A stretch of 64,000 nt of DNA from NCBI RefSeq assembly GCF_044647545.1, contig NZ_CP172818.1; one strand, given 5' to 3'. Origin of the DNA: Escherichia coli (lineage in GTDB: Bacteria; Pseudomonadota; Gammaproteobacteria; Enterobacterales; Enterobacteriaceae). Under the pieces are notes generated by a model, which saw only the letters and a list, made by a program, of their open reading frames with translations, had not been told where the DNA came from and made no database searches. Below are positions 1 to 40,442 of this stretch, piece by piece; within the stretch, counting starts at the first letter, position 1, and each line of letters opens with the position of its first letter. The translations under genes and the position numbers were made by a program.

Positions 1-805
<805 letters not shown>

Positions 806-22164: not shown

Positions 22165-22232
22165 GCCGGATGCGCTTCGCTTATCCGGCCTACACGCGAT
22201 GCCAGGTCAGATAAGCGAAACGCATCCGACAT
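22165..22232. repeat. REP/BIME element (two inverted REP units) between ugpA and ugpB
   Basis: gccggatgcgcttcgcttatccggcctaca and gataagcgaaacgcatccgacatt match the REP consensus GCCGGATGCGGCGTAAACGCCTTATCCGGCCTAC. Confidence 0.8.
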
Positions 22233-23693: not shown

Positions 23694-23794
23694 GGCGGTG
23701 ACGGCGCGGGCGAGGGAAAATGGGAGATGGGGCACGGATAAGCGGGAAAAATAGAAGGTCTGAATCAAACTCTACAGATTGCTCATCGTTTCAT

Positions 23795-23894
<100 letters not shown>

Positions 23895-29627: not shown

Positions 29628-29727
<100 letters not shown>

Positions 29728-37676: not shown

Positions 37677-39875
37677 ATGTCGACTCCTGACAATCACGGC
37701 AAGAAAGCCCCTCAATTTGCTGCGTTCAAACCGCTAACCACGGTACAGAACGCCAACGACTGTTGCTGCGACGGCGCATGTTCCAGCACGCCAACGCTCT
37801 CTGAAAACGTCTCCGGCACCCGCTATAGCTGGAAAGTCAGCGGCATGGACTGCGCCGCCTGTGCGCGCAAGGTAGAAAATGCCGTGCGCCAGCTTGCAGG
37901 CGTGAATCAGGTGCAGGTGTTGTTCGCCACCGAAAAACTGGTAGTCGATGCCGACAATGACATCCGTGCCCAGGTTGAATCTGCGGTGCAAAAAGCGGGC
38001 TATTCCCTGCGCGATGAACAGGCCGCCGACGAACAACAAGCATCACGCCTGAAAGAGAATCTGCCGCTGATTACGCTAATCGTGATGATGGCAATCAGCT
38101 GGGGTCTGGAGCAGTTCAATCATCCGTTCGGGCAACTGGCGTTTATCGCGACCACGCTGGTTGGGCTGTACCCGATTGCTCGTCAGGCATTACGGCTGAT
38201 CAAATCCGGCAGCTACTTCGCCATTGAAACCTTAATGAGCATAGCCGCTATTGGGGCGCTGTTTATTGGCGCAACGGCTGAAGCTGCGATGGTGTTGCTG
38301 CTGTTTTTGATTGGTGAACGACTGGAAGGCTGGGCCGCCAGCCGCGCGCGTCAGGGCGTTAGCGCGTTAATGGCGCTGAAGCCAGAAACCGCCACGCGTC
38401 TGAGTAACGGTGAGCGTGAAGAGGTGGCGATTAACAGCCTGCGGCCTGGCGATGTGATTGAAGTCGCCGCAGGTGGGCGTTTGCCTGCCGACGGTAAACT
38501 GCTCTCACCGTTTGCCAGTTTTGATGAAAGCGCCCTGACCGGAGAATCCATTCCTGTGGAGCGCGCGACGGGCGATAAAGTTCCTGCAGGAGCCACCAGC
38601 GTAGATCGTCTGGTAACGCTGGAAGTGCTGTCAGAACCGGGTGCCAGCGCCATTGACCGGATTCTGAAACTGATCGAAGAAGCCGAAGAGCGCCGCGCGC
38701 CCATTGAGCGGTTTATCGACCGCTTCAGCCGTATTTATACGCCAGCGATTATGGCCGTCGCCCTGCTGGTAACGCTGGTGCCGCCGCTGCTGTTTGCCGC
38801 CAGCTGGCAAGAGTGGATTTATAAAGGGCTGACGCTGCTGCTGATTGGTTGCCCGTGTGCTTTAGTTATCTCCACGCCCGCGGCGATTACCTCCGGGCTG
38901 GCGGCAGCAGCGCGTCGTGGGGCGTTGATTAAAGGCGGCGCGGCGCTGGAGCAGCTGGGTCGTGTTACCCAGGTGGCGTTTGATAAAACCGGTACGCTGA
39001 CCGTCGGTAAACCGCGCGTTACCGCGATTCATCCGGCAACGGGTATTAGTGAATCTGAACTGCTGACACTGGCGGCGGCGGTCGAGCAAGGCGCGACGCA
39101 TCCACTGGCACAGGCCATTGTGCGCGAAGCACAGATTGCTGAACTCGCCATTCCCACCGCCCAATCACAGCGGGCGCTGGTCGGGTCTGGCATTGAAGCG
39201 CAGGTTAACGGTGAGCGCGTGTTGATATGCGCTGCCGGGAAACATCCCGCTGATGCATTTGCTGGTTTAATTAACGAACTGGAAAGCGCCGGGCAAACGG
39301 TAGTGCTGGTAGTACGTAACGATGACGTGCTGGGTATCATTGCATTGCAGGATACTCTACGCGCCGATGCTGCAACTGCTATCAGTGAACTGAACGCGCT
39401 GGGCGTCAAAGGGGTGATCCTCACCGGCGATAATCCACGCGCAGCGGCGGCAATTGCCGGGGAGTTGGGGCTGGAGTTTAAAGCGGGCCTGTTGCCGGAA
39501 GATAAAGTCAAAGCGGTGACCGAGCTGAATCAACATGCGCCGCTGGCGATGGTCGGTGATGGTATTAACGACGCGCCAGCGATGAAAGCTGCCGCCATCG
39601 GGATTGCAATGGGTAGCGGCACAGACGTGGCGCTGGAAACCGCCGATGCAGCATTAACCCATAACCACCTGCGCGGTCTGGTGCAAATGATTGAACTGGC
39701 ACGCGCCACTCACGCCAATATCCGCCAGAACATCACTATTGCGCTGGGGCTGAAAGGCGTTTTCCTCGTCACGACGCTGTTAGGGATGACCGGACTGTGG
39801 CTGGCGGTGCTGGCAGATACGGGTGCGACGGTGCTGGTGACGGCGAATGCGTTAAGGCTGTTGCGCAGGAAATAA
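37677..39875 (+). CDS. zntA: Zn/Cd/Pb-exporting P1B-type ATPase ZntA
   Basis: ORF track 732 aa; N-terminal GMDCAAC metal-binding motif, CPC in the membrane domain, DKTGTLT phosphorylation motif. Confidence 0.96.
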   Translation: MSTPDNHGKKAPQFAAFKPLTTVQNANDCCCDGACSSTPTLSENVSGTRYSWKVSGMDCAACARKVENAVRQLAGVNQVQVLFATEKLVVDADNDIRAQVESAVQKAGYSLRDEQAADEQQASRLKENLPLITLIVMMAISWGLEQFNHPFGQLAFIATTLVGLYPIARQALRLIKSGSYFAIETLMSIAAIGALFIGATAEAAMVLLLFLIGERLEGWAASRARQGVSALMALKPETATRLSNGEREEVAINSLRPGDVIEVAAGGRLPADGKLLSPFASFDESALTGESIPVERATGDKVPAGATSVDRLVTLEVLSEPGASAIDRILKLIEEAEERRAPIERFIDRFSRIYTPAIMAVALLVTLVPPLLFAASWQEWIYKGLTLLLIGCPCALVISTPAAITSGLAAAARRGALIKGGAALEQLGRVTQVAFDKTGTLTVGKPRVTAIHPATGISESELLTLAAAVEQGATHPLAQAIVREAQIAELAIPTAQSQRALVGSGIEAQVNGERVLICAAGKHPADAFAGLINELESAGQTVVLVVRNDDVLGIIALQDTLRADAATAISELNALGVKGVILTGDNPRAAAAIAGELGLEFKAGLLPEDKVKAVTELNQHAPLAMVGDGINDAPAMKAAAIGIAMGSGTDVALETADAALTHNHLRGLVQMIELARATHANIRQNITIALGLKGVFLVTTLLGMTGLWLAVLADTGATVLVTANALRLLRRK

Positions 39876-39881
39876 GGCAAA

Positions 39882-39907
39882 CCGATCGCAACATTGAGCG
39901 CGATCGG
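39882..39907. terminator. 8-bp-stem hairpin between convergent zntA and tusA; possible bidirectional terminator
   Basis: ccgatcgc-N10-gcgatcgg inverted repeat just after the zntA stop; followed by UUUGCC on the minus strand; U tracts weak. Confidence 0.4.
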
Positions 39908-39976
39908 TCCCCTCGCTCCTCTGGGGAGAGGGTTAGGGTGAGGGGAAAAGGCGGCATCGAAGCCAATCTTCCCCCA

Positions 39977-40222
39977 TCAACCGCCTTTACGAATCAAATA
40001 ACGATAAGGCAGTCCATCCGTCTCTTTCGCAACCAGTTCGTGTTCCATAAAGGTACAAAACCCAGGAATATCGCGGGTCGTCGCCGGATCGTCAGCAATA
40101 ATCAGCAACGTTTCACCTGGCTGCATATTGCGCACTGTTTTGCGCACCATCATTACTGGTTCCGGGCAGCGCAGGCCAAGTGCGTCGAGTGTGTGGTCAG
40201 GGCTGGAAAAGAGATCGGTCAT
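39977..40222 (-). CDS. tusA: Sulfur carrier protein TusA
   Basis: ORF track 81 aa; [28 protein letters not shown] with the CPxP active-site motif. Confidence 0.93.
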
Positions 40223-40442
40223 TTTCTTCTCATCACATAAAAAAACGGCGCTAGTTTACGCCCTGTGAGTCCGTAAGCAAACCAGGTTAACGATTGCGTG
40301 AAAATTAACCATTGCATTGTTAACGTAAAGCAGTATCATGCGGCGGCTCGAAAAAAGGGTCAGCACGTTATTATGTTAAGGTAACAGACGTGTCGTACGT
40401 ATTGGGTTCCCTCACCCCAATGGTTAATCAAAAAGGTACAAT

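Follow-up and report, generated by a model that had tools for sequence, protein, structure and literature searches.

Results

The spacer between zntA and tusA

In the window, that is the whole 64,000-nt stretch of Escherichia coli DNA analysed here, the genes zntA and tusA converge on a spacer of 101 nt (39876-39976, Table 1), for which BLAST finds matches of 100% identity in many E. coli chromosomes. The initial annotation had described this interval as dense in palindromes, and every feature that it named is present in the sequence, with small corrections. The hairpin after zntA, whose first base follows the end of the stop codon by 5 nt, does exist, but its stem is a perfect one of 9 bp instead of the 8 bp noted before, and it begins at 39881, one base ahead of the interval 39882-39960 to which the palindromes had been assigned. 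The second palindrome, CCTCT-GGGG-AGAGG, is located at 39918-39931 and the G-rich repeats correspond to gggagagggttagggtgagggg at 39924-39945; the CCTCT/AGAGG palindrome is nested in a larger structure made of one pyrimidine and two purine blocks.

Table 1 Coordinates of genes, repeats and hairpins at the zntA-tusA locus (window positions).
Feature	Position	Strand	Sequence or layout	Remarks
zntA (Zn/Cd/Pb P-type ATPase, 732 aa)	37677..39875	+		open reading frame list; RefSeq annotation under the match; MG1655 b3469
tusA (sulfurtransferase, 81 aa)	39977..40222	-		open reading frame list; RefSeq annotation under the match
Perfect 9-bp hairpin	39881-39889 / 39900-39908		ACCGATCGC / GCGATCGGT	10-nt loop
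BoxC, full extent	39896..39949	+	left flank g.gc.cg..CGGTC, core, GGGGaa.a	~54 nt; 13-sequence alignment
BoxC core, TMECO type A	39910..39945	+	CCCTCGCTCC-TCT-GGGGAGAGGG-TTA-GGGTGAGGGG	
Pyrimidine block	39910..39919	+	CCCTCGCTCC	Watson-Crick partner for either purine block
Purine block 1	39923..39932	+	GGGGAGAGGG	10-position stem with the pyrimidine block
Purine block 2	39936..39945	+	GGGTGAGGGG	proposed triplex third strand or alternative Watson-Crick partner
Weak 8-bp inverted repeat	39947-39954 / 39981-39988		AAAGGCGG / CCGCCTTT	26-nt loop; overlaps the tusA stop codon

RNA folding of both strands bore out the presence of stable structure, the 111-nt interval folding better than its dinucleotide shuffles on the + strand (z = -3.3) and on the - strand (z = -4.5). 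Among 2000 dinucleotide-shuffled spacers, perfect inverted repeats of at least 9 bp arose in 1.2%, and inverted repeats of 6-7 bp were present in most; the G-rich motif found matches in 0 of 100 shuffles of the window. The weak 8-bp inverted repeat that reaches into tusA folds no better than shuffled sequence (z = -1.3).

Identification of the BoxC repeat

The larger structure belongs to the BoxC repeat, also described as the PIT (potential intrastrand triplex) element and as TMECO (Bachellier et al., 1990s; Hoyne/Maher, 2000-2002; PMC4666352, 2015), with a unit given as 56 bp (PMC2267715). PMC4666352 catalogues 23 copies in K-12 MG1655 (Table 1 therein) and gives the consensus CCCTCNCCC-N3-6-GGGNGAGGG-N3-GGGNGAGGG. 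Copy no. 16 of this catalogue, at 3,608,684-3,608,719, is a type A copy with one mismatch (CCCTCGCCCCTCTGGGGAGAGGGTTAGGGTGAGGGG), and zntA and tusA are named as its neighbours (Suppl. Table S2 therein). In MG1655, zntA ends at 3,608,649 and tusA begins at 3,608,751, and the core has the same offsets as in the window, 35 nt from the stop codon of zntA and 32 nt from that of tusA. Over the 36 positions of the core, 35 are identical between the window and no. 16, the remaining one being a C-to-T transition at 39917; the MG1655 orthologue matches the published consensus exactly, and the window core misses its strict form at this single base (T for C). From the shared offsets, the neighbours listed in Table S2 and the 35/36 identity, it follows that the window core is the orthologue of no. 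16.

The alignment of twelve other MG1655 copies with the window begins about 14 nt to the left of the core and extends to the motif GGGGaa.a, and the entire repeat is intergenic, inside the 101-nt spacer. The window copy resembles the catalogued BoxC/PIT/TMECO elements in its three-block layout, the type A 'TTA' second loop, the G.A mismatch, the flanks and the intergenic, dispersed position, but differs from them in the C-to-T change at 39917, which puts a T.G pair into the stem, and in its left flank, which pairs with adjacent unique DNA to form the separate 9-bp hairpin.

Several observations were made alongside. Two open reading frames cross BoxC, 39769-39966 (-) and 39797-40240 (+), of 65 and 147 aa (e.g., ...PPFPLTLTLSPEERGD...); both are almost certainly spurious, the result of translating the repeat and the antisense strand of tusA. 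Just left of the MG1655 copies no. 3 and no. 22 are partial inverted BoxC fragments (ccccaaaggggagagggg..., caccccaatggggagaggg; L002 250-300 and L010 246-262 in the fetched loci), and the left flank of no. 22 (cgagcgcaatatt...gagcacaatcggtc) resembles that of the zntA-tusA copy past the usual border of the repeat. Convergent-gene spacers made up six of the 12 BoxC loci that were fetched (tauD/hemB, aaeR/tldD, frlR/yhfS, zntA/tusA, yjdP/phnP and fimH/gntP), a share above our genome-wide expectation in a sample that was non-random (MG1655 loci L001-L011).

Copy number and distribution

Of the 5,426 complete E. coli genomes searched by BLAST, 5,425 contain the 54-nt repeat, at 80,555 places in total and at 1-31 places per genome (median 16). 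The small repetitive element that the initial annotation had offered as one of two identities proved to be BoxC/PIT/TMECO. Only 33 places were plasmid-borne; matches in true plasmids and phages were rare, some of the 'plasmid' matches being chromosome-sized records, and BoxC is almost entirely chromosomal in E. coli.

In the plasmid collection, replicons of Sinorhizobium (52), Azospirillum (44) and Rhizobium (31) gave BoxC-like matches at 80-90% identity, which fits the published claim of an evolutionarily widespread motif. The 'Campylobacter phage' records A18a and A11a contain three BoxC-like matches each, at ~94% identity (match sites MG065686.1 141090-141141 and MG065691.1 32982-33033); BoxC is unexpected there, which suggests that the two records include enterobacterial DNA.

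Structure of the repeat

The stem formed with block 1 has one G.A mismatch that is conserved in BoxC and, owing to the T at 39917, an additional, allele-specific T.G mismatch beside it. Folded within the spacer by RNAfold, the pyrimidine block has block 1 as its partner; in the isolated element its partner is block 2, and the small CCTCT/AGAGG stem is nested inside. The pyrimidine block can pair with either purine block because GGGGAGAGGG and GGGTGAGGGG are near-duplicates, and this redundancy is the basis of the published intrastrand purine-motif triplex. Nearest-neighbour folding of the window element gave hairpins only. In PMC4666352, the intrastrand purine-motif triplex was demonstrated in vitro by CD and NMR with type A/B oligonucleotides, NMR on a DNA oligonucleotide favoured the triplex over the G-quadruplex (G4), and in vivo footprinting detected neither of them. 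The window carries a canonical G4 motif, GGGGAGAGGGTTAGGGTGAGGGG, at 39923-39945, with four runs of at least three G spaced 1-7 nt apart. With its mirror-like purine blocks and these four G runs, the element is similar to H-DNA and G-quadruplex purine tracts, but it departs from them in that the published NMR data speak against G4 and in vivo footprinting showed neither form.

The 9-bp hairpin

Considering the extent of the repeat (39896-39949), the 9-bp hairpin is a composite, since its 3' arm falls inside the conserved left flank of BoxC and its 5' arm outside the repeat, in unique, single-copy DNA. The 38-nt hairpin segment (39872-39909) was located by BLAST in 4,947 E. coli genomes, with a median of one place per genome; its identity is 99% or higher in 4,936 of these, and it varies less than the right-hand portion of the spacer. 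This conservation could reflect selection for function. For the + strand the predicted folding energy is -15.7 kcal/mol; for the - strand, where the stem is extended, it is -20.1 kcal/mol. The hairpin folds better than shuffled sequence with z = -3.9. A GATC (Dam) site is found in each arm (39884-39887 and 39902-39905), the two being 18 bp apart. We also considered the hairpin as part of a longer repeat subfamily and rejected this: the yjdP-phnP copy has some extra similarity in its left flank, yet the 38-nt segment is single copy. The parts of PMC4666352 that were consulted do not mention this hairpin.

Allelic variation and related species

The short spacer of the window is the majority allele, and a 301-nt query covering it was matched in one piece in 5,029 of the 5,426 genomes. 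Longer alleles with REP elements are present in about 7% of E. coli genomes; some of them have an additional 102-aa membrane ORF, and in some of these longer alleles BoxC is truncated or deleted. In strain MS20674, three REP elements separate the zntA stop from BoxC. The O145 strain RM8843 has a terminator-like hairpin, a hydrophobic ORF of 102 aa on the tusA strand and one REP, and its BoxC ends after GGGTTAGGGT. Isolate A3176 combines the 102-aa ORF with three REPs, an intact left flank and, of the core, only a degenerate first block, ccgctagcc. This last allele was considered as an empty site left by precise excision, a reading that we discarded, as the sequence ccgctagcc after CGGTC is identical to cccctcgcc at 7 of 9 positions, which makes the allele an internal deletion of BoxC. 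In all long alleles the 5' arm of the hairpin is imperfect (ACCGGTTTC/ACCGGTTGC) and the loop measures 17 nt; the perfect 9-bp hairpin is thus specific to the short allele.

The 102-aa ORF (MDYLIPVCLGLLGLFAMF...; 433-741 (-) in the retrieved loci L013 and L014), absent from the window, encodes a very hydrophobic product annotated as hypothetical, for which neither Pfam nor NCBIfam returned a family. Beside the zntA stop, the ORF has a hairpin of its own.

Among 80 species representatives surveyed, zntA and tusA are convergent within 1.5 kb in 48, with spacers of 0 to 1251 nt. REP-like palindromes are frequent in this spacer in Citrobacter, Klebsiella and related genera. Only an Escherichia-like MAG (L043) has a full BoxC in the surveyed spacers, and the copy of E. 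albertii is degenerate. Enterobacter soli (L019) and an Enterobacteriaceae isolate (L077) have a BoxC-like two-block hairpin only (CCCTCTCCCTGTGGGAGAGG and CCCTCTCCTAAAGGGAGAGGG, respectively), lacking the third purine block.

BoxC shares with REP/BIME elements that both are small, GC-rich, palindromic intergenic repeats, often placed between convergent genes or at operon 3' ends, and REPs are found in the zntA-tusA spacer itself in other E. coli alleles, Citrobacter and Klebsiella. The two differ in sequence, no transposase (RAYT) partner or protein ligand is known for BoxC, and a regular-expression search of the window's spacer for the REP consensus (GCCGGATGCGGCG... / CTTATCCGGCCTAC) gave no hit. 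Elsewhere in the window, REP/BIME palindromes with these motifs and their inverted partners occur at 22180-22193, 23795-23878 and 29643-29726, and a second canonical G4 motif, at 23708-23732, adjoins one of these sites.

Transcription termination

The sequence after the hairpin on the + (zntA) strand, CCCCTCGCTCC / CCCCUCGCUCC, lacks a U tract, and the promoter/terminator scan reported no terminator-like site on this strand of the spacer. On the - (tusA) strand, an interrupted tract with a weak tail (UUUGCCUUAUUU / TTTGCCTTATTTC / UUUGCCUUAUUUCC) comes after the hairpin. The hairpin on this strand was flagged as terminator-like by the permissive scan, and its tail reaches a T score of 2.24 and a composite d'Aubenton-Carafa-type (1990) score of about -22. 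Two further terminator-like sites were returned near the 5' end of tusA, one at 40201-40220 (+), within the start of tusA but on the strand of zntA, and one at 40262-40247 (-), on the minus strand upstream of the gene.

A published 3'-end map of K-12 places no transcript end here: the curated Term-seq table for three growth conditions (PMC7815308) lists no 3' end at MG1655 3,608,500-3,608,799, which for a modestly expressed gene is a weak negative. PMC12207403 does not mention zntA or tusA. According to PMC4666352, which summarises experiments of Maher and colleagues, PIT elements have neither promoter nor terminator activity.

A Rho-termination region at 3,607,955 (-), antisense to zntA and about 700 nt past the tusA stop (PMC7815308, Suppl. 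2), corresponds to approximately 39181 (-) in the window. Further Rho regions are reported antisense to tauD (388,499-) and aaeR (3,390,148-), beside BoxC no. 5 and no. 14, respectively (PMC7815308), and at convergent genes, transcription appears to continue across BoxC spacers. We examined whether the C-rich RNA of BoxC could itself be a rut site for Rho. Downstream regions exist at no. 5 and no. 16, where the transcript is C-rich, but also at no. 14, where it is G-rich, and in the stretches of ~1 kb checked, no Rho region was present downstream of the C-rich transcripts of no. 15, 22 and 23. As no orientation specificity emerges, a link between Rho and BoxC beyond the generic Rho termination of untranslated read-through was rejected.

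Discussion

The interval between zntA and tusA is a catalogued copy of BoxC, very probably without a job of its own at this locus, a passive and ordinary repeat and not a bidirectional terminator. Its identity follows from the orthology with no. 16 and from the recurrence of the same flanks in other copies. Natural strains without an intact BoxC between zntA and tusA exist, and BoxC is dispensable at this locus in them. We picture BoxC as probably being carried along passively. Its single strands would fold into a hairpin or, as in vitro, into the purine-motif intrastrand triplex, and by briefly holding up replication or repair this folding may favour local deletions. This mechanism is a conjecture, given that the published work did not detect the triplex in vivo. 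The conclusion of PMC4666352 that TMECO loci are unusually variable agrees with the series of alleles seen at zntA-tusA. The 9-bp hairpin would at best serve as a weak one-way terminator or as a stem protecting the 3' end of the tusA mRNA, and a leaky terminator acting on tusA only, or a 3'-end stem, is possible at this position. Transcription of zntA and part of that of tusA would probably read through the spacer and be ended further on, e.g., by Rho, and zntA transcription most likely runs into tusA antisense.

The alternative that survives best, although we consider it unlikely, is a module for RNA 3' ends, in which the hairpin is a true one-way terminator of tusA, recruited after deletion of the downstream ORF and its terminator, and the BoxC stem or the G-rich tract shields the 3' end of the zntA mRNA from exonucleases in the manner of REPs. 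It is favoured by the restriction of the perfect 9-bp stem to the short allele, by the strong conservation of the segment within that allele and by the significantly better folding of the hairpin compared with shuffles (z = -3.9). However, the U tract is weak, the curated Term-seq data contain no 3' end, the transcription antisense to zntA is ended by Rho downstream, and natural alleles do without an intact BoxC. Related to it, and somewhat less probable still, is a more specific history of the hairpin as an exapted composite: a deletion in this unstable, repeat-dense spacer would have removed the 102-aa ORF, the REPs and the terminator, after which a 7-nt deletion in the loop and a base change would have created a new leaky tusA terminator or 3'-end stem from the junction of unique DNA and BoxC flank. 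If this were true, Zn/Cd-induced transcription of zntA would overlap tusA antisense.

The other identity proposed in the initial annotation, a bidirectional terminator, is highly improbable; taken as an intrinsic terminator, it would have the hairpin, alone or together with the BoxC stem, halt polymerase arriving from zntA as well as from tusA. The site does resemble intrinsic terminators, being a GC-rich stem-loop between two convergent stop codons with stable stems on both strands (-15.7 and -20.1 kcal/mol) and, on the tusA strand, an A-rich 5' side, a partly U-rich 3' side and a terminator-like call in the scan. It is unlike them in that CCCCUCGCUCC after the + strand stem provides no U tract, and in that the tract on the tusA strand is interrupted, with the T score (2.24) and composite score (about -22) given above. 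The scan of the + strand gave no terminator-like site in the spacer. Moreover, no curated 3' end falls in the spacer, the tusA strand has a Rho-dependent region ~700 nt further on, and the published tests summarised in PMC4666352 found PIT elements inactive as terminators.

Still less credible is a small RNA gene on the minus strand. The only match in Rfam is RF02631 (Hrs13), which cmscan aligned over the full model with E = 0.0097 in a 251-nt search, but its 19.7 bits are far from the gathering threshold of 52, the identical positions of the alignment come essentially from the terminator-like stem, and the scan of 39500-40400 detected no promoter-like site. That the palindromes arose by chance in a GC-rich spacer, without a common origin, has practically no probability left: short inverted repeats of 6-7 bp are indeed common in shuffles, but the alignment of 12 copies and the 80,555 near-identical places across E. 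coli genomes exclude this reading, and the motif was unmatched in shuffles, with a 9-bp inverted repeat in 1.2% of them.

Returning to the interval as a passive copy of BoxC, the finding is one that is already known: the element, its copy number, the in vitro triplex, the inactivity as promoter or terminator, the variability and this very locus have all been published, and the composite origin of the hairpin together with the allele series at the locus are the sole details that are mildly new. The value as a discovery is small, and the main use of the result lies in annotation, where the interval should be labelled as BoxC/PIT (TMECO no. 16) and not as a terminator. The alleles at zntA-tusA, in which BoxC is intact, truncated or deleted, with or without REPs and the small ORF, could serve as natural material for testing whether such repeats promote deletions.
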